Of a stretch of DNA of 64,000 nt, positions 9,281 to 34,032 are shown in pieces. The stretch comes from Schmidtea nova. Its lineage: Eukaryota. The translations under genes and the position numbers were made by a program. The notes under the pieces are model-generated. The model searched no databases and was not told where the DNA came from. It was given only the letters and a program-made list of their open reading frames with translations. Positions within the stretch are counted from its first letter, which is position 1; every line of letters starts with the position of its first letter. The stretch spans positions 64,108,001 through 64,172,000 of the forward strand of contig CM097883.1 of assembly GCA_044892505.1 (NCBI GenBank). Direction: 5' to 3'.

Positions 9281-9668
9281 TGCTGGTGTGTTGGTTGGAT
9301 TGACAACTGAGATCCTTAGGATTTTATATGTTAGGGTGATCTCGCCAACATAAAAACATTCCCCCGCTGACACCCATGATGTATCCCTAACTACTCATCA
9401 TGTTGGTGCTGTGTCAACGTTGTGAAATGACAAGGCAGGTGAGCAACCTTTCGGCTACTATTCCCTTGTTTATTCACGGGTCCACCACTACCGATAGAAG
9501 GTGTTTGTGGTTTTCTTTCGGTCCCACTTATGCTCTTTTCTTTTGTCCTAGGGTTGATTCGATGTTATCATATCTGCAGACTTAAAATGAACCAGGTTTT
9601 TGTTACTTTTAATTCTCATACATGCGTCAAACAAACAAGACAAATCAAAATCATTCATTTATATACAT

Positions 9669-10250
9669 TTATTTATAGTTCAACAGTACAGAGGGTCTAA
9701 TCACATTTAGTAATTCTTGCTCAGAGAGACCACTAAGCAAGTCTACCTCTATCCCTACGCGATCGGCATACGCACGTCTTTCCCTGCGCCTTTTCGCTCC
9801 CAAGCGATTCCTTCTCTTCGTTCGTTTTGAACCTGCTGGCATTGTAGCTGTCACTGCATTAACTGTAGCTTCGGTCGATGTGTTCTCCGTTTGGGTGCTC
9901 GTAGTCACCGCTATCGTGCTTATCCATCGATTAAAGGTGCTTGCTCTGATCACGGGGCGTAATTGCTCAGCGATGAAATCCTGGGTCGACACCTTCAAAT
10001 AATTGGTCAACTCCAATTTCAGGGCTGCGATTTCTCGTGCTTGTTCATCGATCGTTCGTTCCGCTCTGTATCGGGCTTGTAAGATGGCTTTAACCCTCTC
10101 AGGATTAAACCATGTTGTCTTAATTCGCTGGTGCTCCTCATTCAGTTGTCTCAAGCGACTCTCGAGGACACGAGATCGTGCTCTATGTTCGCGTGCCTCT
10201 TGCTTGTATTTTCGATTGGGATTTTCGTCCATATCTGAGTAATGTATCAT
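9669..10250 (-). CDS. LTR-encoded ORF B (193 aa): coiled coil plus basic NLS-like tract
   Basis: Long ORF with coiled-coil heptads and KRTKRRNRLGAKRRRERR. Acceptor-like TTACTCAG before MDEN; AATAAA at the stop. Confidence 0.6.
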   Translation of the reverse strand: MIHYSDMDENPNRKYKQEAREHRARSRVLESRLRQLNEEHQRIKTTWFNPERVKAILQARYRAERTIDEQAREIAALKLELTNYLKVSTQDFIAEQLRPVIRASTFNRWISTIAVTTSTQTENTSTEATVNAVTATMPAGSKRTKRRNRLGAKRRRERRAYADRVGIEVDLLSGLSEQELLNVIRPSVLLNYK

Positions 10251-10427
10251 TAACTAGGGTATATATGCATTGTTTGGTTTCTCAGTCATCATTTTATGGT
10301 TAAACAACTGCATTCCTATCCTTACTCATTCCTCATGCATCCCAAATCAAAACAAAAACCCTTTTAAATGGATACATATATTTGCAATTTACAACAGATA
10401 TTCGTTTATTGGGTGTTGTCCTCGTGA

Positions 10428-11063
10428 TCAATTGTATGGTCGTAACTCTTGGTTGGCCGGGTTCTCGTCTCGGCGAATCCCTGTTTCATGGTAGAGTTCC
10501 GGGGCTGGATTCCAACTCAGTTGGTTTTGATAAATGAACACCTCCCAGAGGCGAAGGTCTTTGGGCTCGGGGTGTTGATCCACGGAAACACTGCCTGGGG
10601 CGTTCGGGTAAACGAAGACTTCCCCAGTGTCACCACACCGAGGCCTGTCTAGCAGCAAATACCCGAGTTGGCCGAATGCCTGCCCGGTCATCATTCCGGT
10701 GCTTAGTACCCAACGGGGTTGTTGTGTTTCATCTACAAATTGATAGAACCATCTTTCGTATCCATCTTTGGTGGGGTTCGGGGAGGGCGTCCAATTTACA
10801 TCACCTTCCCACCTCAGCTGTAGTTGGAATGCACAGGCGGGAAAACTTGCCGCGGTGCTCATATGGGTCCTTGTCCATCGACGCAGGTGTCTGCGAGCGG
10901 AGTTGAAAATTTGGCGTGGGGCCTCCTTCTCTCCTTGAATTTCGGTAGGTAACTTTGGCGTGATGACGGAGCGGATGCGCCGTTTCCTCCGTAGAATGTA
11001 CTCCTCTAATTTGACGGTTAGGGGTCCTACCGGCTCCTTTATGAGATATTCTGTTTTCGTCAT
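10428..11063 (-). CDS. LTR-encoded ORF A (211 aa), unknown globular protein
   Basis: GC-rich ORF preceded by TTCCATTTCAG|AGCGAC-ATG and followed by AATAAA. Confidence 0.6.
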   Translation of the reverse strand: MTKTEYLIKEPVGPLTVKLEEYILRRKRRIRSVITPKLPTEIQGEKEAPRQIFNSARRHLRRWTRTHMSTAASFPACAFQLQLRWEGDVNWTPSPNPTKDGYERWFYQFVDETQQPRWVLSTGMMTGQAFGQLGYLLLDRPRCGDTGEVFVYPNAPGSVSVDQHPEPKDLRLWEVFIYQNQLSWNPAPELYHETGIRRDENPANQELRPYN

Positions 11064-12522
11064 GTCGCTCTGAAATGGAATTTTAGGTTAACTGACAGAC
11101 TCTATCATCGACCATCGATATTTATGTCGATCAACCTACTTGGTTTATCGTTCTATTAGCCGTAGGCCTTAGTGGTTCGCATATAATTTACTAGACCATT
11201 GATCGCGGTGTTCATGTAGGTGGTGATTTTACTTGGGTGAGTTGATTCACTCCGCAATTGCAGTTGGTTTTAGCCACGCTCATTTAGGCTTGTTATTTAC
11301 AATCATACTTTACGTTACATTAAATTTCTCATCAATCATTTTCATGCATTTAACATGGTTCATTTACAGATCATCATCAGCAACTATCAAGGTTCACGTC
11401 ACGGGGAAAATTTAGTAATCCCTTTGTCAACTACTTTGTGGAGAAATGCACTAATTTTATCTACTGTCGGGTCTGACTTTTCATGCCCTTCGTGGGTTAT
11501 AGGTATATGTCTGACAGCTCATTCGGTTCGCTACTGCCCTTAGTGCTAATGTCTTTTTGACCGCGATGTTACGCTTTACCTATCTCGATTCTCATCGACT
11601 TCTGATGTACCAGCACTCCTTGAAGGTACACTCCTTCGTCCAGATACCTCATGCATGTATCTCCCCTTGCGAAATAAGCTTTACCTTGATTTGATTTATG
11701 ACCATTAGCTGTCACTCGATACCCTATCATCATGATATAAAGTGTTGATACTAGGCCGTCTCATCCTTGATTTGGTTCATGATCATTATGGCTTATTCGA
11801 TACCCTATGTGCATTTACCCCTTCCGCTTTCCAAATATTTAGTACACTTATAGTCCCGCCGCATCAGCACCTCACAACCGAAAGATTGTGTTGCGCTGAG
11901 AGGCCCCGAGAATCCGTCAGGCTGTTAGGCCTCCGGAAAACCTTATTGATTTTATTATGGTTAACAATTAAAATTATGAGGGTTAGACACATCAATAACA
12001 TAACACCAAATTACCTTTTATTTCCTTTCCAAATTCGTTTCACAATGATCTCAGTAGTCACAAACAGTTCACACTTGGTAAAGATAACATTGTCAAATAC
12101 TGATTTTACTTCAGTATTTATACTGAACCGGTGTTGTTGGTTAGCCAATCAGCATCGAGTATGTGTGTATGTTTGCTTCATTTTTTATGTTGTCGGCTTT
12201 TTGCTGCCTAACTTAACTCGCCGATTTGTTTGGTTAATCATGCGGTAAGTTTATTTTTTGTACGATTTAATTTTTATTTGATTTTGCTTTAGGTCTTCGG
12301 TGACATCCGCCCACGCGCTGTCATATTCCAATTTTATCTGCTTCGCATGAGTGAGTTTTGAAGATTTTTGTTGTTTTGATTAATATGTTATTTCTTTTAG
12401 ATGTTGCCGCCTATTTTGTTACGCTTTGGTGTTGGTAATTTATTTTGTTGTTATTCTGTGTTTAATTTATTTTATTGATTGTACATTATTTTCAGATGCT
12501 GCTCGATTTGGCTGGCCCAACA

Positions 12523-12540
12523 TCACTCGGGGTCCCCTAA
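12523..12540 (-). promoter_or_regulatory. Atypical polypurine-tract position
   Basis: TTAGGGGACCCCGAGTGA abuts the 3-prime LTR. It is purine-rich but interrupted by CCCC. Confidence 0.45.
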
Positions 12541-12726
12541 AATTGCGTCCCGCAATTACATGCATATACTTACATCAACATACATAAAAAGTTCGTGACA
12601 GAATTCACATTCAAAACCACATAAGGTGGTAGCTGTTATACCCATTTTTACACAAAGTCACACATTGTCATTGTCATGTTTATATTGTTACACAGTTCAA
12701 TGTTTCTGGCTCATAGGGGTTGATTT

Positions 12727-13251
12727 TCAGGTCCTTTCACTGGTTGACTGCATTTCGTATCGGGCTTGGATTTGTCGTAGATGACTTCTCATTCTCTGTT
12801 GGGTTTTTGCTTCTCTTTTGGCGCATCTACACATTATCATTTGTTGTTGTTTGAGGCTTCTGATTCGGTACCGGGTATATGTGATAACGATGATCAGGAT
12901 GATTGTCATTATTGTCATTGTGACTATTCCGACGATGATCCATCTGTTTCGGATTTCGGATTCGATTTGGGTTTGACCTTTGATTGGCTTTAGGTGATCT
13001 TGAAAGGTTTTATGGATTTCTCGGATCTTCTCGATTTGATCGAATAGGGTTTGTAAGGGTTTGCGATGATCATGACTGATTCGCATTTGTCGGATTAATT
13101 GTTTCAAGTCTTCTTTGACTTCGTTTAATTGTTTTTCGATTTCTTGGGATATCTCGTTTGACAGGGTTCTTTGAATTTCGGTTGTCGAAAGGTTCATGAT
13201 TATTGCAGTTAACATAATCGTTCGGATTGATAGGATTTTGAGCCAGATCAT
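12727..13251 (-). CDS. Small type I membrane protein (174 aa)
   Basis: N-terminal hydrophobic signal-like segment, helical region, TM WIIVGIVTMTIMTIILIIVITY, basic tail. Confidence 0.7.
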   Translation of the reverse strand: MIWLKILSIRTIMLTAIIMNLSTTEIQRTLSNEISQEIEKQLNEVKEDLKQLIRQMRISHDHRKPLQTLFDQIEKIREIHKTFQDHLKPIKGQTQIESEIRNRWIIVGIVTMTIMTIILIIVITYTRYRIRSLKQQQMIMCRCAKREAKTQQRMRSHLRQIQARYEMQSTSERT

Positions 13252-13324
13252 TTCTGATTATTCTACTGATTAATACCTGTTACATCGATTTGTACATTTT
13301 TACACACGGATTTTTCGCCTCTTT

Positions 13325-14485
13325 TTACACATCCGTCTCCTCTGGTTCATGGAACCCTTCATCTTGGAGTTCCATTGGTGGTGGTGGTATAAACGGTAAC
13401 CACACCACTCTGCTTCTCCACATTGCGATTTCGTTTTGATACGTTCTCGAGGTTTGTATTTCCTCGTCTAACAGATACTCCATATAGTCTGATTGTTCGC
13501 TCAGAGTTTCGATTTGTCTTTCCATTTCTTCCACTTTTTTCTTCAGGGCTTCTGTTTCTGTTGGTTCGGTTTCTACTTCTATGGTTTCTTTCTCTGCTTT
13601 CAGGGTTATTATCTGCTGTTTCAGTTCTTCGTTTTCTTTCGTAAAATTCGTTATATTTTCCTCATACGCTTGGTTTGATTCCGCATGTCTTTCCTTCACA
13701 GCTTTCAATTCCATTTTCTTTTGGGTCACCACCCCTTGATAACCATTTACATCTCTTTCCAAGCTTTCTTTTTCCCTGATCAACTTTTGTCTTTCCGCTT
13801 CCTCTTTTTGTCTAATGCCTCGCATTTCTCCATTTATCATCTGTATTTGCCATTGCGTTTTCTTTAGTTCCTTTGCCTGTTCTCGAATAAATCGCTGTCG
13901 TTTTCGACTCCATTCTTTGTTTGCTTGTTCTTGTCGCTTTCTCTGTTCCAATTCCTCTTTCAATTCGTCTATCTCTTGATACAATTTCCAATCTTCGCTG
14001 TGTGCTGTCCTTCTGATTATCTCTTTGGCTTCTTTATACACTCGTTTCGACTCCATCTTCCAATGTCTCGCTTGAGCCTTAATTGCTAGTATTTTTACCT
14101 CCATCTTTTCCTCTTGTTTCTCCCTCTCTTCTCTTCGCATTTTCATCATGTTTTTGTAATGTTCTGCTTGTTTTCTCATCAGCTGATAGGTCTCTTCTAT
14201 CTTCTGTCGACTTCGTACATTCGTTCCTTTTAGCTTCTCTATTTGTGTTGTCAGTTGTACTATCTCTTTATTCACTTCCTCGAGTTCTAGTTGATATAAC
14301 TCCATTCGTCTCTCGCATTTTAGTTTCTCGTAGTAATTATTTGTCATTACTTCGTTTAATTCTCTGGTTCTTTGTTCTACTTCCATTTTACATCTCCTTT
14401 CGATTTCTCTTTCTATTGTTTCTTGTTCGTTCAACATCTCGCTTCTCGTTTCATCTTCGATTACATGTTCATTTGCGTTTTCCAT
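13325..14485 (-). CDS. Long coiled-coil protein (386 aa) ending FIPPPP...ETDV
   Basis: E/K/R/Q-rich heptads; preceded by TTACAG|A-ATG. Confidence 0.8.
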   Translation of the reverse strand: MENANEHVIEDETRSEMLNEQETIEREIERRCKMEVEQRTRELNEVMTNNYYEKLKCERRMELYQLELEEVNKEIVQLTTQIEKLKGTNVRSRQKIEETYQLMRKQAEHYKNMMKMRREEREKQEEKMEVKILAIKAQARHWKMESKRVYKEAKEIIRRTAHSEDWKLYQEIDELKEELEQRKRQEQANKEWSRKRQRFIREQAKELKKTQWQIQMINGEMRGIRQKEEAERQKLIREKESLERDVNGYQGVVTQKKMELKAVKERHAESNQAYEENITNFTKENEELKQQIITLKAEKETIEVETEPTETEALKKKVEEMERQIETLSEQSDYMEYLLDEEIQTSRTYQNEIAMWRSRVVWLPFIPPPPMELQDEGFHEPEETDV

Positions 14486-14574
14486 TCTGTAATTTACAAA
14501 TTTACACTTGTTATACTATACGTTTATTGTTGTTGTCGATTTTTACACTTTATTTACGGGGTCGTTCATTCCGA

Positions 14575-15987
14575 CTACTCTAACCATCCTTTCGTTGACT
14601 TCGTGTTCATCACTGTTGTACTTGCTTTCTTTTCGATCTCCAACTCTACATATAAGTTGTCGTCGTACAACATCTCCCACATTGTTTGGTGTGGTATGAA
14701 TTTTGGTTCTCCAGTCGCTAATGAACATTCTGTGGTTGGTCTTTTGTAAGCCTCGTGCTTACCATCAATTTTGAATACTCTCGCTATTGTTTCTTTCGAG
14801 TTTCTCACTCTCATTATAGCCTTTGTTTCTAGTGGCCATTCTAATATGTCGTCGTAACCACCTTTACACAACGCAAAGAATAATGACACATGCGTTTCCT
14901 TTCCTGATCCATCTCCATTTGGATAAATTCTCATCCGGACTTTGTATCCGTTTTTCCACAGATAGAATGGTGGACTTGTTACCGACACTTGACTTCCTGC
15001 TTTTGCTGCTGCGAACTTTTCGTTGAAGTTCTTGATTTTCCATACATATGGTGCAACAGGTAAACTCTCGATATCCTCTGCATCTCGCACCCACATTTGA
15101 TGTCGCACGTTTACTTCTTTTACCAATGTCTCTATGACTTTGATTTTCTCCATCATTTTCTCTCTGGTGAGCTCGAATTGCTCTCTTGTTTCTAGTAATA
15201 ACTCCGTCATTATCCTCTGAGATTCGATTTCTTTTCCCAGCTTCTGTATGGTTTGTTCCATTCCGTTCAAATTTTCTGTTAACATCTCGGCGTGTTGTAC
15301 CGTTTCCGTTTCCAAATGCTCTTTCATCTCTTTGCTCGTTTTCTTTACTGCACATCCTTGTTTACTCCATATGCACTTTCTTGGTCTTGATTCGCATTGT
15401 TCCCAATGTTCTCTCAACATCACTTTTTCTCCGGTTCCACAATTACTTGGACAAATTCCTCTGAATTTTCCGCACACTTTCTCTTCTGCTACGTTGAGAT
15501 GTTCTGTTTCGATTACTTCTCTCGTCTCTTTCTGTGCACAGTATTGACACTCTATTATCTCTGCTTTGCACTCGTCCTTGTGATTTTTCGACTGCTTGAT
15601 GGTTATTGTCTGTTGACACTTTTCACATATCGCTTTCTTGTTTTCGCATTTCCCCAGATGTTGTCTTAACTCGATTATTTGTCCCTTCCATTCACAGGGT
15701 TGGTTTATACATTCTGTTTTTATTTTCCAGATCTCCTTTTGTATTGCTTTGTCTGGTTTCGTCTCGTTGATTAGTAGTTTATCGTCACACTCTGGACACT
15801 TTCTTGTCTCACTTTCCCTGATTATTTGCAATATACACTTGATGCACATCCTGCATCCACATTCCGTTTGTCTCGGTTTTAGCAGTAGATTTTTACACTT
15901 TACACACGTCACATTTACTCCCCATTGTCGATTTTCTCTTCTTAGAATCTCGATGGTTTGGTAATCTGCTTCACTTTCTGCTCTCAT
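14575..15987 (-). CDS. TRAF: TNF receptor-associated factor (TRAF2/3/5-like), intronless
   Basis: RING (CVKC..PRQTECGCRMCIKC..CPEC), TRAF zinc fingers, coiled coil and MATH domain (YVWKIKNF..SPPFY..GYKVRMRIYPNGDG..HVSLFF..DDILEWP). Confidence 0.95.
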   Translation of the reverse strand: MRAESEADYQTIEILRRENRQWGVNVTCVKCKNLLLKPRQTECGCRMCIKCILQIIRESETRKCPECDDKLLINETKPDKAIQKEIWKIKTECINQPCEWKGQIIELRQHLGKCENKKAICEKCQQTITIKQSKNHKDECKAEIIECQYCAQKETREVIETEHLNVAEEKVCGKFRGICPSNCGTGEKVMLREHWEQCESRPRKCIWSKQGCAVKKTSKEMKEHLETETVQHAEMLTENLNGMEQTIQKLGKEIESQRIMTELLLETREQFELTREKMMEKIKVIETLVKEVNVRHQMWVRDAEDIESLPVAPYVWKIKNFNEKFAAAKAGSQVSVTSPPFYLWKNGYKVRMRIYPNGDGSGKETHVSLFFALCKGGYDDILEWPLETKAIMRVRNSKETIARVFKIDGKHEAYKRPTTECSLATGEPKFIPHQTMWEMLYDDNLYVELEIEKKASTTVMNTKSTKGWLE

Positions 15988-16077
15988 TCTACAACAATAT
16001 TTACATCAATTTCCCCGTATTTTTGATTTTTTCTGGTTCTTTATTTACACGTATTTACACAGTTTTCCGCTTATTCA

Positions 16078-16428
16078 CTATACATCCTCAGTTGAATCTG
16101 GCTCTGGATACACGTCTATCTCATTTACAATCCAGCTCGTCCAACTATCCGGTATCTCTTCTTCTTCATGTCTCGTTAATCGGTCAATTTCCTCTGCTTG
16201 CCAGTTGTTCACTTCATTCAATGTTCGGTTCTCGTTCTGTAATTCGTTTATCTGTAGTTGTTGGATCTCGATTTTGTTCATTGCTTCGAAATTACAGTTA
16301 TAACTCTCGGTTAATAATTGCGTTTTGGCCGTCAACTGGCTCTGTAATTCATTTACTGTTCTGGCTAGCAGGTCGCATTGTACTTTCCATCTCGCCATCA
16401 TCGACATCTCGATATTTTCTTGGTTCAT
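16078..16428 (-). CDS. Short coiled-coil protein (116 aa) ending EPDSTEDV
   Basis: Heptad pattern; preceded by TCTAG|AAAAACG-ATG; AATAAA downstream. Confidence 0.65.
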   Translation of the reverse strand: MNQENIEMSMMARWKVQCDLLARTVNELQSQLTAKTQLLTESYNCNFEAMNKIEIQQLQINELQNENRTLNEVNNWQAEEIDRLTRHEEEEIPDSWTSWIVNEIDVYPEPDSTEDV

Positions 16429-16551
16429 CGTTTTTCTAGATTATATACATCATTCTCTTTTTTCTGTTTTTATGTTTTATAATATTTATACCCATACGTA
16501 TACGGTTATGCATTGGTTTTTACAATATTATTTACACTCATATTCCACCCT

Positions 16552-19500
16552 CTATACAACTATTACTGGTTTTCCTTCGTACAGTTCTTCGTCCTCGATC
16601 TGTACCCACATCTCTTCATGTTTTGATCGTCTTTTCAGTTCCTCTCGTACTTCTTTTGGTAGTTTTATGTTGTAGTTCGTGACCTTTACGTCTGGCCATT
16701 TTACTGCTATGGTCTTATTTCTCATGCCATATCTCCAACATACTATCATGATCGTTATCAGTGGGATACACGCTATGAATACTCCCATGCTGATTAAACC
16801 CATTATTGTTTTCCCAATGCTCCTTCTTGGAGTCTCACTTTGGTTTATCATCACGCCATATTGACCTTTCCATTCTGCTTCCCATTGTTCATATTGTTGT
16901 TGTCTCCGTCTGACTTCTTCGATCACTTTCTCTGGTTCCCATTTTTCTTGTTGATTTGGTATTGTTTCTTCCTTCTCGTTTTGTTCTCTCTTCTGACTCA
17001 ATTCTCGGAGTTCTAACTTTTTGATTCTCCTCTTTATCGGTGTGTAGTAGGTTTCGCACCTTTCTTGTGGATTTCCTTGTGTATCCACTTCTTCGATCGC
17101 ACACACTTCGTATTCTGCGTTTGTTTTCAACCTCCTCATTTCTACCTCGATTGTTTCCTTTTTGTCATTTGATGTCTTTTGACAATTTCGTGGAGACTTT
17201 CCCATACTGTTTGGCATTAATGTCCAACAGATTTCTAGGACCTTTTTATGGATCTTCCATATTATCAGAGTCGTTGATTCCGGTTCGTTTTTTGTTGACG
17301 TCCCTTCTGTTGTCTGTTGAGTTCCTTGACTGTTGGTTGTCGTGGTTCTTCTTGACTTTCTTTTCCTTTGTTGACTTCCTCCCATTTCGATCGTTCTTGT
17401 ACCGTTAATTTGCTCTGGCGTCTTGTACAGTCTGCACTCCAGGCTTCTTTGTATTACTTCTCTTATTCTTCGGATTACGCAAATTTCGTAAGCTTGTCCG
17501 ACTTCGAATCCATTTAGTTGAAACGGGATTCCTCGTTCTCTCGTTCTGCATTGCGGTAGTACGTGACTGGTCGATATTCCGATGTATTTTCTCCAACACA
17601 TCCCAATTGTTCTCCGCCCAATGTTTTTTATCTCCACTGTTACTACTTCATTCGCAATCGTTTCTTGATCTTGTTTCTTTCTTTTTGGGAACTCAATTAT
17701 CTCCTTTGCTCGGAACACTTTACACTCGCTTGTTCCTGGTCTGTTTCCGTTTGCTGCCTTTTCCATGAGACATAGTTCACATTTTTTATCTGTCTCTATT
17801 TCTGTTATTTCGATTTCTTCATTTGTCTCTGCCTCTCGACTTTCTCTTGTTTCGCTGATTCCAATTACTTCATTGTTTCGTCCCCAACATCTTCCATTCG
17901 TTGTTCGTTGGTCTTGGATATTTACTAACGTCATCACGCTGATATCTATGTCCTCCATGATTCTCTTAATGAGGATTAATATTAATGCTACACATATCAA
18001 TTCTGGTTGGAATGTTAATTTGCCTGCTGGATTTTTGGTTATTCTTTCTTTCTCTGTTCGGTTTCTGATTCCTTCTTCTGCTTCAGATTGATTCTTCCCT
18101 TTCTCTGATTCCACTTCTGTTCTTCTCGTTGTTTCTTTGCTTCTTTTCCCAATCCATTTCTGTATTTTCAGCGCTTCCGTTGCCTTATATAATTGACATG
18201 CAGTTACTTGAGGTGCTTTTGGTTCTCCTCTCTGCTTTATTGCGCATATTATGTATGACTTTTCTTTCTCCAATCCTTTGATTTGGATGACGTCTCGCTT
18301 CAAATCTGACAATATACACTTCAACGTATCATTTTTCTTCAGGTTTTCTTTCCAGCATATTCTTTCGTATACTTCATTTCCTCTGATTATCTCTAGCGTG
18401 ACGTATTGTTTCTTGGCTTCTCCTTGTCCGATGATTGTTATCAATATCGCAATACACAACATTTCTGGTCTCAAAAGTAGACTTCCTGTTCGTTTTCCAT
18501 AGTTCGCATGTTCGTCTTTTGTTCCACTGTTTTCTCGTTCTTCGGCTTCTCCTTTCTTGTCGTTTCTTGTTGGCTTTGGTTCTTCTTGTCTTTCTTTTTC
18601 ATTATCCTCCGTTCTTTTGTTGTCACTGTCTTCGTTGTTCTCTTCGTTGTTGCTTTTGTCGTCGAAATCTCTGTAACCACCCCCTGGTCCTTTCGAAATG
18701 TCGTCCTCGACATTAATTTCTTCAATCAATTTTTCATACGCTTGAACCGCGAGTGTGCTAGACTCGAATTCCCGTATTTCCATATCTTTGGATGGTTCTA
18801 TGTCTTTTAGTCTACTTTGTTTGATCGTTTCTTTGGCATTTGCCCATTCATTCACATATTTTCTGAACAAGTCTTTCCATCTTCCCGTTCGTTCGGGTTC
18901 CTTTGGATTGTTCGTGAACTTCAAATCTCTTCTCTTTAAGAATTCTTCTACTATCTCTGGCTTTTTGTGTCTTAACAACGCGCTTCTGATACACCAATTC
19001 TGATTCTGTTCTATATGGTCATTGATCTTGAATGCCGGTTCCTTGGTGATCGGGTTCACCCATGTTAGTAATGCTCTTGTTTTCTCTATGTCGTGTATCA
19101 TTACTGTCAGACTGAAATTCTTTACGTTATTCGCCAGGTATTCGATATCTTCTTGTTTCTTGATGGACTTTATGAACTTGATCATCTCAAAGTTGTTCCA
19201 CTGTATTGCGATATCTATAATGGAATTATTCTTTCCATTTTTCCCTTCGATTTTTGCTCCTGCTTCGTATAATTCACTTAGCACTTTCAGGCTCGTCTTC
19301 TTTCTTGCTGCGATTATCATGATTGTATCTCCATTATCATCAACCGTATTCATATCTGCTTCGCACTTGATCATCGCTTTCGTTATTTCTAGCGCTTCGT
19401 TTTCTTTCTTTCGACGTAATGCCCAGTGTATCGGTAATCTCCCATCCTTTGATAAAAGGGATGCTACTGGCATTTGATTCTTGATCGTTTCTATGTCACT

Positions 19501-19755
19501 CTCGTTATAATCTCCTTGTGCGTATCTGTGCACTTTCTCTGTAATCGCTCCTAGTATCTCCAACGAGTTTTTGTTCTCTTTGAATTCCGATATTCTTTCT
19601 TGCGCTTTTGCTACGATTGCGTCTAATCTCTCTTGATATTCCGCTTTTGCATTGAACAACACTGCTTTGCTTCTTATTCGCGTTTTCATCTTTTTCATCC
19701 GTTGGTCTTGATACACTGCTTGTCTGAAGAATTGTCCATATTTCAATGCTTCCAT
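16552..19755 (-). CDS. Ankyrin-repeat / 4x FN3-like / transmembrane protein (1067 aa)
   Basis: Ankyrin motifs (DGRLPIHWAL, NGDTIMIIAA), two internal signal-like segments, four CW...L...YEIC...C..Y.TP repeats and a C-terminal TM. Confidence 0.8.
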   Translation of the reverse strand: MEALKYGQFFRQAVYQDQRMKKMKTRIRSKAVLFNAKAEYQERLDAIVAKAQERISEFKENKNSLEILGAITEKVHRYAQGDYNESDIETIKNQMPVASLLSKDGRLPIHWALRRKKENEALEITKAMIKCEADMNTVDDNGDTIMIIAARKKTSLKVLSELYEAGAKIEGKNGKNNSIIDIAIQWNNFEMIKFIKSIKKQEDIEYLANNVKNFSLTVMIHDIEKTRALLTWVNPITKEPAFKINDHIEQNQNWCIRSALLRHKKPEIVEEFLKRRDLKFTNNPKEPERTGRWKDLFRKYVNEWANAKETIKQSRLKDIEPSKDMEIREFESSTLAVQAYEKLIEEINVEDDISKGPGGGYRDFDDKSNNEENNEDSDNKRTEDNEKERQEEPKPTRNDKKGEAEERENSGTKDEHANYGKRTGSLLLRPEMLCIAILITIIGQGEAKKQYVTLEIIRGNEVYERICWKENLKKNDTLKCILSDLKRDVIQIKGLEKEKSYIICAIKQRGEPKAPQVTACQLYKATEALKIQKWIGKRSKETTRRTEVESEKGKNQSEAEEGIRNRTEKERITKNPAGKLTFQPELICVALILILIKRIMEDIDISVMTLVNIQDQRTTNGRCWGRNNEVIGISETRESREAETNEEIEITEIETDKKCELCLMEKAANGNRPGTSECKVFRAKEIIEFPKRKKQDQETIANEVVTVEIKNIGRRTIGMCWRKYIGISTSHVLPQCRTRERGIPFQLNGFEVGQAYEICVIRRIREVIQRSLECRLYKTPEQINGTRTIEMGGSQQRKRKSRRTTTTNSQGTQQTTEGTSTKNEPESTTLIIWKIHKKVLEICWTLMPNSMGKSPRNCQKTSNDKKETIEVEMRRLKTNAEYEVCAIEEVDTQGNPQERCETYYTPIKRRIKKLELRELSQKREQNEKEETIPNQQEKWEPEKVIEEVRRRQQQYEQWEAEWKGQYGVMINQSETPRRSIGKTIMGLISMGVFIACIPLITIMIVCWRYGMRNKTIAVKWPDVKVTNYNIKLPKEVREELKRRSKHEEMWVQIEDEELYEGKPVIVV

Positions 19756-19764
19756 CAGCTCTTT

Positions 19765-22700
19765 TTATCGCTTGCTTATTTCTTTGTGCTGCTTTTGGAT
19801 GTCATAGAAATGTTCGAAGCTCATATCCGGATTCCATTGTTTATCACACCATTTCTTGATTAATCCGAATAGTTCTTTCTTCCTGTCTTCCAGCTTGTAT
19901 TCTCTTGGGTTCTCGCTAACCCGTAGCGTATCTCTCGCTATTAACACTGCAAGTGTTTTTGGATCGTATGTTACTTCTAATAGATGTTTCAGTAACGCAT
20001 TTTCTCCCCTTGTGAACACTTCATTACAATCTATGACCCACGAATCTCCTTCTGGTCGTTTCCACTTTAGCAATATTCTCCAGGTTTTACTGTTATTTAC
20101 TCCGATTGCTTGTTTCATGATCGATCCTCTAGTTAGTTCATCGATTTCCCACGTGGCATTTTCCGTAATATACTTCAGTATTCGGTGATTCGCTCTGTCA
20201 ATTGCATGATTCAAGAACGTTCGTCCTTCTTTATCTTTTGCCATCCAATTCGATCTGGTGTTTCCGAATAGCTTGATTATTTCATCGTTTCTTCCATGAA
20301 TTGTCATCATCATAAGTGGAGTGATTCCTTCCCAGTTCACTTTGTCAATTTCTCCTCCACCTTCGAGTATCATCTCCACGATCTCTTTCACTTTCTCGTT
20401 TCCACCGTGCTTGATTGCGTTGTGCAACGTGGTGTTGCCGTCTTTATCCTGTAGATTTAATGTCTGAGGGATCTCCTCTAGCAGCGTTCTTGTTATTGGA
20501 TGTGCTGTTCTATCCTTAGCATACTCCATTACATTCTTTCGAACTTCTGACAGTATATTGAAATCGAACCACCATTTCCATTCTGGTATGATTTCTCTGG
20601 TCCTCTTTGCCAGTTCTTTGATGTCTATTATCTCCCTTCGGTTGTCCTCTAGACTTGTTTGCGGCTTTTGTTGTACTCGCAACATATTAATTCTCGCCGT
20701 CTGTGATCTTGTCATCACCCGTTTCTCTGGTGATAGAGTTGCTGTCTTTGGTATTTTTCTGCATCGACATGCATTCACGTATATTGGTCTTACCAATGGA
20801 TTGTTCACCAATCGTACTCTCACATTATTTTGGTTAACTGTTGTTATTTCGTATGGCCCTTTGCCTGGTCGTTGGAGTTTCTTGACTGTACCGGGTATTA
20901 TCTCTGGTGTCTCAATTATCACCCAATCTCCAACTTTTAAATCATGTGCTTTCACATTCTTTTTCTGATCATGCAGATCCTTGTAACTCTCTTGATAGAA
21001 CTTGATGTTCAGTTCCGCCGTTTTCCAGATTTCTTGCATTCTTTCTTTGAACTTCGTCACGTAATCGTCAACCTCCATGTACTGTGATAATGGTGGTTGG
21101 TATTCTAAATCGATCGGTAAGTTGCAATCTCTTCCGTACATCAGTTGGAATGGACTTAGCTTTGTTGCCGCATGTATTGACATTCTGTATGCCATTAAAC
21201 ACAAGTTGATATACTCGTCCCAGTCAGTCTGATGTTTGCTGACGTAATTTGACAACATGCGTATCAATGTTCCATTGAATCTTTCTGTTTGACCGTTCGT
21301 TTGTGGATGGTATGGGGAAGTTCGTAATTTTGCAATTCGGAAGTAATTCGTAACTTCGTCTAATATTTCACTCATGAAATTTGTTCCTTGATCCGTTAGG
21401 ATTTTCTTTGGTGTTCCGTATCTGCAGCATATCTCTTCCACCAATATTCTCGCGACTGTTTTCGCTTTTTGATCTGGCATTGCGAACGCTTCTGGGAACT
21501 TTGTTAGATAGTCCGTGACTACTAAGATATATTGATTCCCCTTTAAACTTTCCGGCAATGGTCCAACCACGTCCATTGCTATCGTTGCCATCGGTTCTGC
21601 GGGTATTGGCATTGGTTTTAGTGGTGTTTTCCACTTCGTTCCGACGTTCTTTCTTGTCGCACAAGTTATGCAGTTCTTTATCCATTCTTTCACATCGTCT
21701 TCCATGGTTGGCCAAAAATACTTTTGTCTCAATCTCCCGATGGTCTTTTTCGCTGACATATGTCCGCCTAATTTTCCGTCATGATATTGAGTCATGATTT
21801 CCTTTCGCCTATTCGCAGGTAAGCACGTCAATCTCCGTTCTCCATCTTGTATCAATAACCATCCTTTTTCCATCACATATCTATGTTGATATTTCTGCAT
21901 ATGTTCGCGCAACGTTTGGTTCTTGCCGAATATTTCCCTTTCCCTTTCTTTCAGATACTTGCTGATCAATCCCAACTCCTCATCTTCGAGTTGATCTTTC
22001 CTTAATTCGCTGAAATCCAAATCTTCCGCTATTAATGCACATATTTTTAGAGCATTCAGGTTCACCAATTCTGGAAATGTAAACCTTGACATGCAATCCG
22101 CATTTGCATTTGCTTTTCCTGCTTTAAACTTTATGAACGGCGAGTATTCCTGTAACTGCATCGCCCAACGCATCAATCTACTTGATGATTCTTTATGTTG
22201 ACCTAACCATACTAGCGGTTGATGATCCGTCGTGATATATATTTCATGACCCCACAATAGGTATTTGAAATGCTTGATTGCCAATATTATCGCATAGGCT
22301 TCTCTTTCCGTGACTGAGTAATTCCTTTCATGCTTCCTGAACGTTCGACTGTAATATCCAATTACTTTTTCCTTGCCTTCTTCGTCAAATTGGCCTAGTA
22401 CTGCTCCTGCTGCGTATCCACTTGCATCTGTTGCTAACAAAAATGGCTTCTTGAAATCTGGATGGACCAGTATTGGTGCTGTAATCAGCTTATCTCGTAA
22501 TGTTTCAAATGCTGCTTGCTGTTCTGCTCCCCACACAAACGACACGTCTTGTCTTACTAATTCTTGCATTGGCTTTGATATTCCTGCATAGTCCTTGATA
22601 AACTTTCGATAATATCCACACAATCCCAAAAATTCTTGTATTTGAGTCACTGTTTTCGGTGGTGGACATTCTTTGACTTTTTCGATATTCCTTGGATCTG

Positions 22701-25700
22701 GTTCTTTTCCTTTTGCTGATACAATGTGACCTAAGAATGTCACTTTCTCTTTTGCCCAATCGCACTTTGACGGCTTTAATTTCAGTTTCCATTGCCTTAA
22801 TTTCACGAACACATTTCTGATGTCTTGCAAGTGGTCTTCAAATGTTGCGGAGTAGATCAATAGATCGTCAATATACACCATGCATTGCTTTATGCCATGT
22901 GTTACGAAATTCATGCATCTCTGGAATGATGCTGGCGCGTTTGTTAACCCAAACGGCATTTTCTTGAATTGGTACAGATCTCGTCCGATTGTAAATGCTG
23001 TCTTCTCTTTATCCTCGTCTTTCATTTTGATCTGCCAATATCCGCTCTTTAAATCCAGTGACGTGAAATAGGCTGCTCCTTGTAACGTCAACAACATTTC
23101 GTTTATGTCTGGCAGTGGGTACGTATCTCTTTTCGTAACTGCGTTCAATCGTCTGTAATCGATACAGAATCTCTGAGTTCCATCCTTCTTTTTCACCATC
23201 ACCACCGGGAATTGCCAGGGTGAGCAACTAGGTTCGATGACCTCTGCATCTAACATCTTTTGTACCTCTTCTTCTGCCACTGCTTTTTGAGCTTCTGCCA
23301 ATTTATATGGTCGTAATGCGATTGGCGTTTCGTCCGTCAACGGTATCGTGTGCAATGTTACATCACATGTTCCTAAATCTAGATCCGATGCTGCGAATAT
23401 ATCTTTATATTCCATCAACAGTTTCTGTAACTGTTCTTTTTGTCGTTCGTCTAACAACACACTGTCGATTTTCCATGGTAACTCGTCTTTGTTTTTCTCG
23501 TTCTTGTCTGGTATTTCGATCTCGGACATGGGTGTCAATTTACCCAATCTCTCATTCTCGTATATTATCTTGTCCTCTTCGTCGAAATTTACCAGATTAA
23601 TTGGTATCTCACCTTCTTGGTTTATCGTAACCAATTCTCTTGCCATTGGTAATTCCTTCTTCGCTTCGAACTTCTTACTTGGTTCGAATACCATATCTCC
23701 CTTTATTGTTGAATCGATCTTGACATAACACATCATTTCATGTCTCGCTGGCACTACTATTTGTTCTGCACTTGCCACTTTAACTTTCATTCTGCAGATT
23801 TTTCCTGTTCTGTCTTTTAGTTTCATTGCTCCTAGATCGATTACGATTTCCTTGAACAGGTCTGGCATCAGGTCAGTTCCAATAATACATGGTACACTCA
23901 GCGATGGTATTACAGCGATGTACGTGTTGATCTCTGCACCTCGATGCTTAATTTTTACAAACCATCTTCCGGCTACTTCTACCGTCTCTTGACTGCACGC
24001 GATTACATGTACATTCGTTTTCTCAATTTCTCCTTGGTTTTTCTCTGGTATATAATTGATGTCGATTGCCGAAATATTCGCGCCTGTATCGATCATAGCT
24101 TCAATTTCTCTTCCGTTTATTTCTACGGTTGTTGTTAAAATCGGTCCCATGTTTGTGGACATAACCGCTATCGTGTGCGTGTCTTCTAACGAGTTTACGC
24201 TTCCGCCTCGTTTTACTTTGCATCCTTCTGGAATTATCGGGTATATACTTGTCATCGGCATCATCTGCATCATATTCGGCTTCGCTTTGTATATTGGTTC
24301 GTTATACATTGATTGGGGTGGAGCACTGTATCTCCAATTCTCAACTGCACTCTTTTCGTTATACTGTGGAATCTGGTTTATATTCGCTTGTCCTCCTTGG
24401 TCGTCATCGTCATCATCATTACTTGAGTCATCCTGCGTTCGATATCCCCTCACTCTTTCCCATAATCCTTTCCTTTCTTTCTTTAGTTGTCGCCTTGCTT
24501 GCTCGTCTTGCATTATCTTTTTGAATTTCCTTCCGACATCTTCGTTTGTTCCTTTCATTTTTGCGAGTATCTTCAACAATCTTTTTATTCGATGTATGTC
24601 TTTTGAGTGTCCGTGTAACACCATCGTTTTCGCAAGGAATGGTAAAAACCCTACTACCATTTTCCAATTCACTTTCTTTTCTCTCTTGTAGATATCAAAA
24701 CACGCTAACATTTGCGTTATTATCACTCTGACGATTTGTATTATCAGTATAACCCCCAGTATTCCAGCCATCATTTGTCCGAATATTAGGAATCTTCCCC
24801 ACATTGCCTTCATCATATTTTCTGTGGCTTTCTTGAAATGTGCCGGTGACAACAGCAGTTCGTAATTCGGTCCTTCTCGATAATTCGTTCCTCCCGTTAT
24901 CGTTACGATATTTGACAGTAATGCTTCTCTTCTTGCCGGGAATAATATATTCTGCCTTGCTGCTTCTAAATCTTTTGGACTATAGATTCCGTTGTTTGAG
25001 ACATCTACGTCACTGAACTGTCTATCCTTTGACAACTGCATTAGCTCAAATTCTCTTGGTGCTAATACTTCGGTTCTTCCTGGGAACATTACCCATTTGC
25101 CATCTGGTTTCTGATAAAGCGGTCCGTACGCATTACTACAGTTGAATGGATTTGGTTCAAACCCTGGTGGATTGATGATTCTCGTCACCGGTTGAACGTA
25201 TCGTACTTTTCCTTTATAATCGATTTCTAATTCATTTGTACATTGTCCAGGTTTCAACTGCGTTGTTGCTGCTAGCGATGCGTGGGTCTTTTCGCAAATG
25301 TATACGTACATTGCTTCTCCTACCACTCTTCCGAAATGTCCTTCTCTCAGTGGTAATAATGGCATTGCGCTATCTGGATTCGTAATCGCTACGGCCAACT
25401 TTGTCTTCAATATTTCTCGATTCAGTATACAATCGTTATTTATCAGATCATAGTACACTTTTTGCAATGAGGCTTGACCTCTATGGAATAAGAAATCCAT
25501 TTTATTATTCACATACAAGTGTAGCTTGATATCCATTGTGTCGATCTTGGGTTTCGCATTCGGCACTTCTTGTTTCGACACGTATATTCCTGGATAGTTT
25601 GTTTCGTATACTGTTGTACTGCACTTAAGGGTTGCTTTCCCTTTTATGAATCTCATGCCCACATCCTGATTTGTGGTTATCAACACTGTTGGTGTGGTTC

Positions 25701-28700
25701 TCATCTCTATCCGTTTTTCTCTATGATCGGGTTTCAATTGTCTTTTATTCTCTAAAGCTTCCTTGAGATGTTTTGCTCTAGCCTTGTCATCATCGTCCTC
25801 TTCTTGGAACGTTTTTCCTTGAATTTCGTCGAACTTTGCTCCTTGTAGCAGTTGTAATTGACATTCGTTCCCCTTCGGTTTGTACACCAAAGTTGACATT
25901 CCCGTTTGACACATGCTTCTGTCAATTTTACACATGGATAACGTTTTCATTTCTCCTGTTGTCGGTTCGAAGAATGCTTCGTAGCTTTTCAGTTCGACTA
26001 TATACGTATCCATTACCACTAAGTTGGTTGCAGGTACTCCGAATATTGGGTAGGTTTCTCCTTGACAATATCCTTCTCCTCCCGTAATCCGTCCTGCTAC
26101 ATAATATGTCTGCTGCAACATCATTCCTGGCTTTCCTTTTATCTTGATTTTATCTCTCGTTGTCACTTCTCCATGTTTAAACAATGCTTCGCAGTCTTCT
26201 CCTTGCAACACGATTGGTTCTCTTTCGGTTCCTGGCATGACAATTGCCGAATAATGTCCTCTCCCACAATAGAATGCGAATCTCGTCTTCTGTACCTTGC
26301 ATTCATTCACCATTGTCTTTATGAGTTCTGCCTCTTGATACACGTGGTACCATTGTTCCTTTTTGATCTCTTTTAATTCTACTGGAGTTGCATCTTTGCA
26401 TTGCTCCGTACCTCTCAATGAGTACTTTTCTCCTAACTTCATTTGATCACAATCAAATACCTCAAATGTTGTTACACCTTCCGTGCTTAACAACCATACT
26501 AACATCATCATGATTATCGAGTTTAAATTCAACGTCGATCTTCCGTTTCCTTGCATCGTTTGTCTATTCTCCATTTCTCTCAATACTCCTTCAAGTTTCT
26601 TTCTCATCACGTTTGAACCCTCTTTTGTCTGGTTCTCTTTTATGAACTTTTCCCATCCTCCTTTCCTGAGGATATATGGTTCAATTTCTTTCTCGATAAT
26701 CATCGCCGTATTTTTAATATGTCTTCCCATCGGACTTGACTTCGGGCTTCCTCGGCTTAGCGTTAACAAATTGTATATCGTATACGAGATTGCTACTAGA
26801 TATTTGCTGTCCGTTTCTGCTCCGTTTAGTAGCCTTTTTACCAACGTCGTGGTTCCTTGCCAATCTAGATGATTCGATTTTGTTTTCGCCTTGATCAGTT
26901 CTGGCATAATCGGTGCTATCGCGTTGTGTAGCATCCTTGCCTTCGTACCGGGTTCGTTTATCCGCCACAGATTCTTTAATTCTGGGTCAATTATCGCTAA
27001 TACATCCATTATCGTTTTGGTGAGCCATTCTTCTCCTTGGCAGACTTGATTCTCCTCTTTTCCTCTGATTTCTGCGATTTTATCTAATTTCTTCAAGCAA
27101 ATCTCCCATTGCTCTTGTCTCCTTTCTTCTCTTGTCTTTGGAATTGCTGTTGTTGGGTCTATCTTTGGTCTTCCTCTTGGTCGTTTTTCCATTCCGGTTC
27201 CTGTTTCTACCAATCTCGATGTTCTTCCGGTTTCTTCCGTAACATCTATTCCTTCGTTTGCTCGTTGTTCTAACCATCTTTCCATTTCTTGAGTAAACTG
27301 TGGTTGTTCTTGCTCGTCCTCCGAATCGTTTACCATTTCTATGACTACCTCCTGTTCCACTCCTTGATCGTCGATTTCTGCTGGTGACGTTATTGGCATC
27401 TCTATTATTCTGTCGAAAATATTCGCCGTTGGTTTTTGAGTCAACTTCGTTAGTTCTTCTATCGCCTCATCACTATCTGTTAGTATCTCATCCACGTCAT
27501 ACGCTTCTGGTGGTGTTCTCTCTCTCGTTTTTATTGGTGTTGTCCTTGCTTGTCCCGAACTTGTTCCTGGGGTCATTGTTGACTTCATCGGACTTGGTGT
27601 ACTCATGCTTCCTTTCGCTTTCTTTTCCTCTTTAAACTTCAGTGGTTGACCCACTATTTGTGCCACTGTTAGCGTATTCATTAGATCCAATTGCACTGGT
27701 GTCAGCCAGATTTCCAAATTGTTATCCAACGATCGTCCTTGATGTTGCAGGTGGAATGGTAGTTCGTACATCAGTTTCTCTTTAACACTTTTCACTTTTT
27801 CCGTTAGCATCACCCAAAACTCTTCTTTTCTCTGATTCGGATACATTATCCTCAAATGTATCTTCTGTGGCGTTTCCTCCGCGAATTCTCTGTTTCTCCA
27901 CTTTTTTATTACATCGTCTAGTTGCTCTGGACACCACTCGTTAACTCTCTTGTATTCTACTATCGCTTTAGCTACTTTTCTCAAGTTCGTCATGTCTTCT
28001 CCATTTGTGATTATGAATTGTGCTAAGCCTTTTATTGTTTGTCTTTTTCCCCGAGTATTTCCTCTCAACAGCTCGATCAATTCACTTGTTTTCTGTTTCT
28101 CCAATTCTGCCCATATTACTGCAGTTTCTGGTCCGTCTAAGTCCGTTGGTAATATTCTCCTTGTTACCATACATATCCGTTTCGTATTCGTTTCGTATCT
28201 GTCTTCTCCTTCCGGATCTTCTTCATACACGCCTCTTTTCACTTTCCAACATTTCTCTTTGTTATCCCATTGCTTCTCTACTGGCGTCAATCGTCGTCTG
28301 TTAAGATCCAATTCTCCCAATATTGTCTCCCATTCTGGCTTCATCTGCCAGTTCCGATAGATTTCTACTATCTGTCTCAACTTGCGCATAACGTCCTCTT
28401 GTCGTTTCTTTCTCTTTCCTTCATCTTTTGTAGTTATCCTCGGCACATCATCCATTCTGATGACGTGTATTGTCTGATAATTATCCCATATGCCGATTTT
28501 GTACGCTCGTCTTTCGTCTCGTTCGTTCAGTAGATGTTCTTTGTATTTTATAGCGATGTCATCCTCGAATTCGTCTTCTCGTTCTTGTTGTAATATCGTC
28601 TCATTGATGACATCTACTATTTCTCCCACTTTACTATCTGGTATTACCTCAATTTGTCTTGTCTCTTCGTTTGGTAATCTCACGGTAATATTCAGATCTG

Positions 28701-31443: not shown

Positions 31444-32320
31444 CCCGATTCCACTATCTTGGAATACTGTACTAGTTTTCTTTACTTCTAGTTCACCACT
31501 TGTTTCTGAATTCGACTCTTCTTCTTCGCTACTCTCTGTTTCGTTATCTCTTGATTCGCTTCTTGCTCTGTTTTCCCTGACTAGTTCACTGTCTATCGTC
31601 TCTACTTCGTTTTGTACTTCTAGATCTTCTGGGGTTTCTTCTTGATTCTCTTTATTACTCGAATTATCGCTGATCTCTACTTGTTTGTTCTTTTGTTGCT
31701 TAGGCTTGTTACCTGTTCTTGTCCTTTTTGCTGCTTTTCTTTCTGCTTCCGTTAAGATTGGTATTATACCTGATCTTGTTTCTCGTCCCTCAATTTTGTC
31801 TATTCCTCAACTTCCTATATTCTCAATTGATTTTCTACTCCGCTTTTGCTTTGCTTCTTCTTTGCTTTGTTTCCTTTGATTGCTCTGACTGCTAGATTGC
31901 TTTGGATTGCTTGATTGATTTGTTTCCTTAAAACAAATAATCACTTACACGATACGTCCCCGTTATCGTGTTTCTCGTCCCTCTCACGGGTGTAGTCATA
32001 ATTCATGAAGATCCCCATTTTTCCCATTTCCCTTGATTTTAAGTCTATTTAAATTATCTATGCAGTCGTATCAATTATCTATTCTTTATCAAATACACCA
32101 ATTACTTTTCCCCAGTTTCCCAATTACTTTGTCGCTCAGCGCTCTTATTATTCCCTTTACTTTTCTCAGGCTTCTCTGGCTCTGAGTTCAAATCTCCCCT
32201 TATCTGTCAACTACTCTATTTCCCAACTATTCGCTTTATCTCCTATTCGCACTACGTTTACAACTTCATTTCAATTCTCATCTCTACTCACCTTTAATTC
32301 AACTGACGTCTCTCGTTGGC

Positions 32321-32784
32321 CTGCTGGGCTTTCCAGTCAGCGCCTTTAATCTCACTTTTTATCTCGATCTTTGTTTTCTCTCAACTTCACTCATTATCTC
32401 ATTAGCCTGCTGGGTTTTCCAGTCAGCGCTTTTAATCTCACCTTTTATTTCTGCTTCATTATTCTCGACCTCTATTGTCGTTTCATTAGCCTGCTGGGTT
32501 TTTCCAGTCAGCGCTCTTATTATTCACCCTTTATCTCTTCACTGTCGACTTTTACCTGCTCTTTACTCCGATGATCATCACTTTTGACCTGCTGGGTCTT
32601 CCAGTCAGCGTCCCCAATTTCACCACTTTATTGTTACTCCCTTTTATTCTCTCGATCTTTCCTGATCGTTATCATTGACCTGCTGGGTTTTCCAGCTAGC
32701 GTCTTTACCACTTTTACCTGTCTTAACAAACCGGTTTCATTTTATTCCCATGGAATCTCATGGTCTGCTGGGTTTTCCAGTCAG
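32321..32784 (-). repeat. Array of six spaced ~20-nt bulged stem-loop motifs
   Basis: CTGACTGG-AAAAC-CCAGCAG copies (plus-strand starts 32321, 32407, 32491, 32589, 32680, 32765), 84-98 nt apart. Confidence 0.85.
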
Positions 32785-33112
32785 CACCCTTCACTTACTC
32801 ACTTTACTTTATTACTCCTATGTATGCATACTTTGACGTCGTTAGGCCACATAATCAGCTTTACTCGCATTTATCAATTCCCAGGTGCGCACCTTCAACT
32901 CTCACATTATTACCTCGGTTTCTTTCAACCCTTATTCCTCATTATTCGCTATTCATTTTCACTATTCATCATTTATCCTCATTATCATTTATTCATCTCC
33001 ATTATTGCTTGTTGATCTTCACTATCCGGATAGTTTTATACGTAATTTAGTCCTCATCTGCCTCACTTCGTCGTCTTTCTCGTGGGCTTTTACTCAATAT
33101 TTTATTTCGAAC

Positions 33113-33680: not shown

Positions 33681-34032
33681 TCGAAATATCATCTCTCAGT
33701 GGTTGCATGTGTTGCTTCGGGATGTTCCTCCCAGTGGTCACTTATGCTTCTTCGGAGAATCTATTGTTGCGTTTCGTTAAGTTCTATCTTTCAAGAACTA
33801 TGGGCAAATCCTTTCTCTCCAGGACCCCTTTTATCATTTCCTTTCTTTCAAGGATTTCCTTTAACCTCGAGTTTTCCATTTACTCGGTTCATCTGTTATA
33901 CCCCTTTATTCTATTATCGATTCGTCAACCTTTCTACTTGATTTTACCTTATGCGAGCTGATTACGTGCCTTTCATCATATACCACGTTTCGCTATTCAT
34001 CTTACTCATTTCATTGCTTTCTCTCTCTCTTT

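Follow-up and report, generated by a model that had tools for sequence, protein, structure and literature searches.

A complete, RING-bearing TRAF gene under apparent purifying selection in Burro-type Gypsy retrotransposons of a planarian

The window, the whole 64-kb stretch of DNA analysed here (64,000 nucleotides of Schmidtea nova), contains a Burro-like Gypsy LTR retrotransposon with a whole TRAF gene among its accessory frames. As a preliminary description of this DNA had claimed, the gene is complete: a 470-aa frame with RING, zinc-finger, coiled-coil and MATH domains lies between identical LTRs. Comparison with its copies and with host TRAFs points to an old capture from a planarian and to maintenance by purifying selection. 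The element is made up as follows.

9281..38633, minus strand: whole Burro-like Gypsy LTR element, 29,353 bp (LTR self-comparison, target duplication)
9277-9280 and 38634-38637: GAAG target duplication, 4 bp
35392..38633, minus strand: 5' LTR, 3,242 bp, holding ORFs of 211 and 193 aa (self-comparison)
9281..12522, minus strand: 3' LTR, 3,242 bp, 100% identical to the 5' LTR (self-comparison)
35368..35385, minus strand: candidate primer-binding site, 6 bases inside of the 5' LTR
34372..34809, minus strand: 145-aa accessory ORF with a C-terminal second RING (Pfam zf-C3HC4_3, E 7e-9)
19765..31443, minus strand: ORF1, 3,892 aa, with CCHC knuckles, fusion glycoprotein, protease, RT, RNase H, integrase and ankyrin repeats (Pfam)
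16552..19755, minus strand: ORF2, 1,067 aa, with N-terminal ankyrin repeats and hydrophobic segments
16078..16428, minus strand: 116-aa accessory ORF ahead of the TRAF, conserved in sister families, dN/dS 0.07
14575..15987, minus strand: TRAF accessory ORF, 470 aa, intact (translation, Pfam, PDB sequence matches, predicted structure)
13325..14485, minus strand: 386-aa charged, probably coiled-coil accessory ORF after the TRAF, dN/dS 0.11
12727..13251, minus strand: 174-aa accessory ORF with a hydrophobic N-terminus and one internal hydrophobic segment
15988-15992, 14486-14490 and 13252-13256, minus strand: splice-acceptor-like bases

Read on the coding strand, the LTRs start with TG and end with CA, and the internal region between them spans 22,869 bp. 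Because the two LTRs are identical, the insertion is probably very young. The candidate primer-binding site presumably resembles the 3' end of tRNA-Pro; no tRNA genes were found in the 64-kb window. The coding order is the 145-aa ORF, whose second RING we take to be of the IAP/MDM2 type, ORF1, ORF2 and then a tight cassette of the 116-aa, TRAF, 386-aa and 174-aa frames. Within ORF1, Pfam placed a zf-CCHC match at residues 275-291, PF24664 at 1912-2253 (E 3e-68) and the protease at 2438-2528; the PF24664 segment corresponds to a Monjiviricetes-type fusion glycoprotein lying in frame ahead of the protease, and the pol order is PR-RT-RH-IN. Several further traits were observed in and around the element. 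The LTR frames of 211 and 193 aa occupy 35780-37174 and 9669-11063 (minus strand), and the leader between the 145-aa ORF and ORF1 holds a 19-bp tandem array (33072-33540) and an 85-91-bp repeat family (32311-32809). The bases TAGA, CAGA and CAGAA, directly before the ATGs of the TRAF, 386-aa and 174-aa ORFs, resemble splice acceptors. Inverted-repeat-bounded units, probably DNA transposons, lie on either side of the element (722-3526 and 43665-55428).

The published Burro/GYPSM1 elements of planarians are Gypsy-like LTR elements of about 30 kb with a giant ORF1, in which env lies in frame between gag and pol, and their cargo includes ankyrin repeats, MATH_TRAF_C and accessory ORFs (PMC6431247). 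Set against that description, the element in the window can be assigned to the Burro type by its size, gene order, env, and ankyrin and MATH_TRAF_C cargo. Both have Gag knuckles and an in-frame mononegavirus-like fusion protein before PR-RT-RH-IN, and the 29,353 bp of the element are slightly below the 30 kb quoted for Burro. No Pfam match to BIR, BCL2, SUMO-like or dUTPase domains was found in the 3,892-aa ORF1, the published Burro motifs having come from HHpred. The placement of the TRAF cargo differs. The Burro description names the MATH domain alone, which in Burro1 is part of ORF1 and in D. tigrina belongs to an accessory ORF upstream (PMC6431247), whereas the present element has a whole RING-ZnF-coiled-coil-MATH gene in its downstream cassette, with these parts:

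15787..15906, minus strand: RING domain, aa 28-67, eight Cys ligands (C4C4) (Pfam, alignment with TRAF6)
15853..15855, minus strand: TGC codon of Cys45, the flagged His-to-Cys position (alignment, copies)
15310..15711, minus strand: TRAF-type zinc-finger region, aa 93-226, with Pfam zf-TRAF at 170-224 (Pfam, alignment)
15067..15303, minus strand: predicted coiled-coil helix, aa 229-307 (AlphaFold2 model)
14635..15048, minus strand: MATH/TRAF-C domain, aa 314-451 (Pfam, pocket alignment)

Translation of the minus strand from 14575 to 15987 gave a frame without interruption, in which an N-terminal RING, TRAF-type zinc fingers, a coiled coil and a C-terminal MATH/TRAF-C domain, the marks of the TRAF family, are all present. 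The MATH domain was recognised by Pfam (PF22486, E 3e-27; PF21355, E 2e-25) and matched TRAF5, TRAF3, TRAF2 and TRAF1 in PDB sequences with E values of 1e-25 to 1e-27. The RING scored under the curated cut-off with both PF15227 (E 2e-4) and PF21363 (E 9e-4), and zf-TRAF (PF02176) reached 27.2 bits against a cut-off of 27; the PDB sequence match of the RING-ZnF part was TRAF6, the RING being aligned over 70 residues (E 2e-7), and the Cys/His columns of the zinc-finger region are nearly invariant. An AlphaFold2 model built on a 32-row alignment (mean pLDDT 91, pTM 0.52) predicted a single 79-residue helix, residues 229-307, ahead of the MATH domain with pLDDT above 90. In Foldseek its top PDB matches were the TRAF domains of TRAF1/2/3/5 and the N-terminal RING-ZnF of TRAF6 (3hcs, rmsd 1.9 over 140 columns). 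The replacement of CGHRFC by CGCRMC, pointed out in the preliminary description, was confirmed: CGCRMC occupies residues 43-48 and Cys45 stands opposite His87 of TRAF6, so that the RING departs from the canonical C3HC4 type, with His as fourth zinc ligand, and is C4C4. Fold, domain order and polar receptor pocket are like those of vertebrate TRAF3, TRAF5 and TRAF2 (MATH) and TRAF6 (RING-ZnF), whereas the element protein has Cys for the His ligand, a shorter coiled coil and a shorter zinc-finger array.

The gene is not confined to the window. In a protein search of the genome (G000) the best 90 of 3,281 candidates were scored, and all 90 were full-length with 95-100% identity, 85 of them without an internal stop; element DNA on both sides and the CGC were present in 30 of 30 fetched copies. 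An exact 20-base RING pattern matched 121 sites (control 0). Searches with a host locus and with protein P0004 brought to light the sister families B and C, about 51% and about 45% identical and each with the CGC; a degenerate RING pattern for the two gave 161 matches (control 0). At least 282 element-type RING motif sites are thus present in G000, their context having been checked on a sample. One example each of B and C showed the same gene order beside ORF1 homology, and the cassette order 116 aa-TRAF-386 aa(-174 aa) is fixed in the three families. A fourth Burro lineage (L105/L106) has the MATH domain alone, inside the polyprotein, which is the published arrangement.

Some observations on individual copies are recorded here. 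In the fourth lineage (L105:5794-9999; L106, at 97.58 Mb of contig C1 of G000) the frame has 4,706 aa, and its MATH domain fell near the element TRAFs in a MATH-only tree with weak support (82/82). L103 (7396-9669; C1, 277.92 Mb) has lost about 1.2 kb by a deletion that truncates the TRAF inside the MATH domain and joins it to the tail of the 386-aa ORF. In the copies of B and C that were sampled (L173, L176), most of pol between the protease and the ankyrin region is missing. The 193-aa LTR ORF has homologues of 28-34% identity in the LTR regions of both sister families, and a 46%-identical homologue of the 145-aa RING ORF, which lies upstream of gag, occupies the matching place in family B. 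The B copy is 95-96% identical to ORF1 of the window over residues 1638-2338 and 55-60% elsewhere, a jump that suggests recombination between element families.

Selection was assessed among copies that are related to one another, in samples that favour young copies; pairwise dN/dS was 0.080 for 30 copies ranked by protein score. A second, overlapping set of 30, ranked by the DNA downstream of the gene to remove the protein-score bias, contained the whole TRAF in 29 copies and gave a value of 0.093; in this flanking-DNA set dN/dS was 0.09 for shared variants versus 0.31 for singletons (Fisher p 7e-9). For 20 copies chosen by flanking DNA the value of the TRAF was 0.087 (0.062-0.125), with 0.043 for the RING, 0.109 for the zinc fingers, 0.072 for the coiled coil and 0.079 for the MATH domain, the intervals resampling codons only and that of the RING overlapping those of the other domains. 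RT-RNase H was found at the expected distance in 18 of these 20 copies, with a dN/dS of 0.021, and the neighbouring frames gave 0.066 (116 aa), 0.105 (386 aa) and 0.252 (ORF2 tail). Family B showed 0.108 for the TRAF over 27 copies and 0.13 for its RING. The eight RING cysteines were invariant in 29 of 29 RING-bearing copies and persist in families B (51% identity) and C (45%), and Cys45 was present in every copy of two samples (30/30 and 29/29). These figures indicate purifying selection on all four TRAF domains. The difference between shared and singleton variants, together with the RT found beside the TRAF copies, suggests that selection acts during replication of the element and relaxes after insertion. 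Such selection denotes a function for the element; it does not by itself show that host signalling is the target. The preliminary description had named two observations that would speak against it, a TRAF limited to this copy and neutral evolution. Neither was encountered, in view of the at least 282 motif hits in three families, the dN/dS of about 0.09 and the frame intact in all three.

Two traits that the preliminary description had attributed to the element, a His-to-Cys change of its own and intron loss by retro-capture, turned out to be shared with the host. Host-type loci came from a Pfam MATH search of G000 in which the best 150 of 2,419 candidates were scored. In ten of them a single frame, or nearly a single one, spans RING to MATH, as in the element TRAF, and nine have the CGC (L031, L035, L036, L037, L039, L050, L101, L108 and L113; L111/L114 has CGI). 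Locus L039 has the very CGCRMC of the element, and L035 shares 70% identity with a TRAF-2-like protein of D. japonica, a likeness that points to a planarian as host. No Burro ORF1 was found within the 10-kb surroundings of the host-type RING-MATH loci; what they do contain are fragments of unrelated Gypsy pol (25-31% identity) close to L039, L050 and L111, and an LTR-like stretch of 250 bp close to L037. Base use separated the two groups: at four-fold sites the three element TRAFs matched ORF1 (T 0.06-0.07), whereas all seven host TRAFs covered by the test, a set with L039 and L108 outside it, differed (T 0.17-0.41). Among 227 fetched proteins, 154 had a parsable RING, of which 119 were of the His type, 19 of the Cys type (query included) and 16 other. 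The named Cys-type proteins are Dendrocoelum lacteum TRAF-2, -4 and -5 and echinoderm TRAF3-like proteins, and 12 others are unnamed. The CGC RINGs of the crinoid and starfish TRAF3-like proteins (P0109, P0136, P0200) are apparently independent of those of planarians.

A RING-TRAF tree was built with the Cys column removed and rooted at the midpoint. The three element families formed one clade (100/99; 95/91 under a mixture model), a grouping to which the unusual composition of the element rows can contribute. This clade was sister to two unnamed proteins, P0108 and P0231 (99/98), and lay within a 22-row clade (100/99) together with host loci and the named Dendrocoelum TRAFs, 20 of the 22 rows being Cys; the echinoderm Cys proteins grouped with TRAF3. 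Four proteins or loci were left out of this main tree, namely P0005, L050 and P0004 for their long branches, the place of P0004 being taken by P0231 from its cluster, and P0011, which has no RING; neither tree included L039, L040 and L108, whose rows were long or gappy. No host orthologue of the P0108/P0231 lineage was found among 113 candidates scored in G000, a PF21363 search of G000 gave 3 matches only, and no relative above about 35% full-length identity appeared in public protein sets (one search with 8 matches, another with the best 150 of 5,514 scored). The single clade within planarian-type TRAFs and the element base bias lead us to infer that a planarian host TRAF was captured once, long ago; the nesting of the element clade in a Cys-rich planarian clade indicates that the cysteine, like the intron-free frame, was inherited from the host lineage. 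The cysteine as an innovation of the element is ruled out by the nine host loci, the Dendrocoelum TRAFs and the tree, and intron loss as proof of retro-capture is ruled out because host coding frames are uninterrupted too. Planarian host TRAFs (D. japonica TRAF-2-like A, Dendrocoelum lacteum TRAF-2/-4/-5, and Smed-TRAF-2A/B of PMC7586133 and PMC8807557) share the compact architecture, the C4C4 CGC RING and the clade of the element TRAF, which differs from them by its 27-34% identity, its element-type base composition and its hundreds of dispersed copies. Planarian TRAF RINGs are hereby recorded as C4C4, with an apparently independent switch in echinoderm TRAF3.

The surfaces of the RING and MATH domains were compared with those of characterised TRAFs. 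In TRAF6 the E2 face is made up of I72 and L74, and Ubc13 is no longer bound by the I72D/L74R mutant; TRAF5, although of low activity when alone with Ubc13, has a RING that forms active heterodimers with that of TRAF6 (partial text of PMC5702613). The element has Lys30 and Lys32 at the positions of I72 and L74, a TRAF3-like trait; rodent TRAF3 has K/R and host L035 has I/L. Such lysines were considered as a decoy signature and found not to be diagnostic: beside the K/R of TRAF3, Lys and Ile are equally common at the E2-face position of His-type RINGs (21 of 119 each), and the element families have K/K, K/N and I/Q, family C keeping the Ile. The C4C4 ligation is likewise no sign of a decoy, since C4C4 RINGs can be active ligases; TMEM129, an active E3, and CNOT4 have eight-cysteine RINGs as in the element TRAF and are otherwise unrelated proteins (partial text of PMC4024746).

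Receptor binding of the TRAF1/2/3/5 type uses three hot spots, a hydrophobic pocket, a serine triad and a polar pocket (partial text of PMC6125299). In the alignment the element MATH domain keeps the polar pocket (R353/Y355/D359) and most of the hydrophobic pocket, whereas the serine triad has given way to H411/E412/A413 and the equivalent of Cys469 is E427, two losses that set it apart from vertebrate TRAFs and from the three-hot-spot pattern. With the serine triad gone and the polar pocket kept, a receptor specificity other than the vertebrate PxQxT type is likely. Host planarian TRAFs also depart from the serine triad, although less so than the element TRAF, and the element families differ from one another at its positions (HEA, TST and AMC). 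As both these and the E2-face residues vary, no single binding mode is conserved across the families. A search of the tails of the neighbouring ORFs of the element for TRAF-binding motifs found none convincingly conserved across families; a weak SYEE/AYEE lies inside a coiled coil and PxExxD occurs in two of three 386-aa tails.

The most likely reading of these data, whose chances we consider to be about even, is a captured and maintained TRAF that would serve host survival or immune signalling as adaptor and RING partner, favouring the cell in which the element replicates. The TRAF, fourth in the row of ORFs from the ORF1 start and packed into a tight cassette, would on that account be read from a spliced or subgenomic RNA. 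Through its coiled coil and MATH domain it would assemble into trimers, either by itself or together with host TRAFs, and bind the tails of receptors or adaptors, its specificity differing from that of the classic PxQxT type. Two zinc ions would be bound by the C4C4 RING, which would take part in ubiquitin transfer as TRAF3/TRAF5 do, and which may be weak at recruiting Ubc13 itself while able to pair with another TRAF RING. The outcome would be an altered survival or innate-immune output (NF-kB/JNK/caspase axis), beside the second RING and the ankyrin cargo. Host TRAFs are known to control planarian cell survival (partial texts of PMC8807557 and PMC7586133). A TRAF homologue in a parasite genome that acts on host death signalling has been described in the iridovirus ISKNV, whose ORF111L acts on host TRADD/caspase-8; ISKNV is a large DNA virus of fish and its protein is pro-apoptotic via TRADD, the likeness being one of description only (partial text of PMC3352826).

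Against a specific role in host signalling stands the fact that every accessory ORF tested is similarly constrained (dN/dS 0.07-0.25), and other roles were weighed. A dominant-negative decoy, which would join host TRAF trimers or receptor tails without recruiting an E2 and so damp signalling, would fit the lost serine triad and the lysines located where the TRAF6 mutant loses Ubc13 binding and host L035 has I/L. This reading is rather unlikely: the lysines have their counterpart in rodent TRAF3, are as frequent as Ile in His-type RINGs and give way to Ile in family C; the cysteine is inherited and not a lesion; and the RING has the lowest point estimate of dN/dS of the four domains (0.04, with overlapping intervals and a different value, 0.13, in family B). 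Alternatively, the TRAF could ubiquitinate or scaffold the element's own proteins for particle assembly, trafficking or release, with no action on host signalling. The cassette order fixed in three families is in line with this, as are the in-frame fusion glycoprotein, which implies particles, and a TRAF-like ligase linked to ESCRT in another organism (partial text of PMC10181826). By contrast, the neighbouring ORF tails offer no convincingly conserved TRAF-binding motif and in the sister Burro lineage the MATH domain of the polyprotein is all there is of a TRAF. Most Gypsy elements, moreover, replicate without a TRAF, and we regard such an element-internal role as unlikely.

Selection on behalf of the host, with some copies being domesticated TRAF genes and the rest hitch-hiking, would account for the many stop-free copies (85 of the 90 scored). 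It is very improbable, given that constraint falls on variants shared by dispersed copies and is relaxed on singletons, that RT stands at the expected distance in 18 of 20 copies and that the window copy has identical LTRs. A neutral passenger from a recent capture is scarcely credible in the face of a dN/dS of about 0.09, three families that are 45-51% identical with the frame intact, and a base composition assimilated to that of the element.

The preliminary description had also expected element copies to inflate TRAF gene counts in the host. This holds in part: the element copies, with at least 282 motif hits, would overwhelm any count made from the genome, but the MATH genes of the host have truly expanded as well. 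Of the 150 scored MATH matches, 63 lie in C2:405-455 Mb, mostly with frames of 135-250 aa, element context having been checked on a few of these loci only; ten MATH-only or short-frame rows sampled from this region formed a separate clade (96/95) in the MATH-only tree. The host-type MATH loci of the region are partly arranged in tandem arrays, 4-5 kb apart. The expansion reported for S. mediterranea rests on transcripts, 99 of them with 121 MATH domains (partial text of PMC6109357). In practice, anyone who counts TRAFs from planarian genomes or designs RNAi against them must tell several hundred element copies from the host expansion.

MATH_TRAF_C cargo in Burro has already been published (PMC6431247). 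A literature search, with the primary papers (Jurka 2007, Grohme 2018) and supplements outside its scope, found no description of a full RING-bearing TRAF under selection in Burro elements. What had been a one-line domain note thereby becomes something that can be tested: a TRAF complete with ligase module and conserved almost as tightly as the enzymes of the element. It is uncommon for a retrotransposon to carry whole host signalling genes to its own advantage. More tentatively, and as a reading less likely than not, Burro-type elements might be regarded as proviruses that bear an env and, in the style of poxviruses, a kit for modulating the host, which comprises the complete TRAF, the second RING and the ankyrin and membrane proteins, anciently captured and selected in hundreds of copies. 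The TRAF of this kit would enter mixed RING dimers and trimers with host TRAFs and reset death and immune thresholds in cells that express the element. If this were true, a transposon would be a standing part of planarian TRAF signalling.
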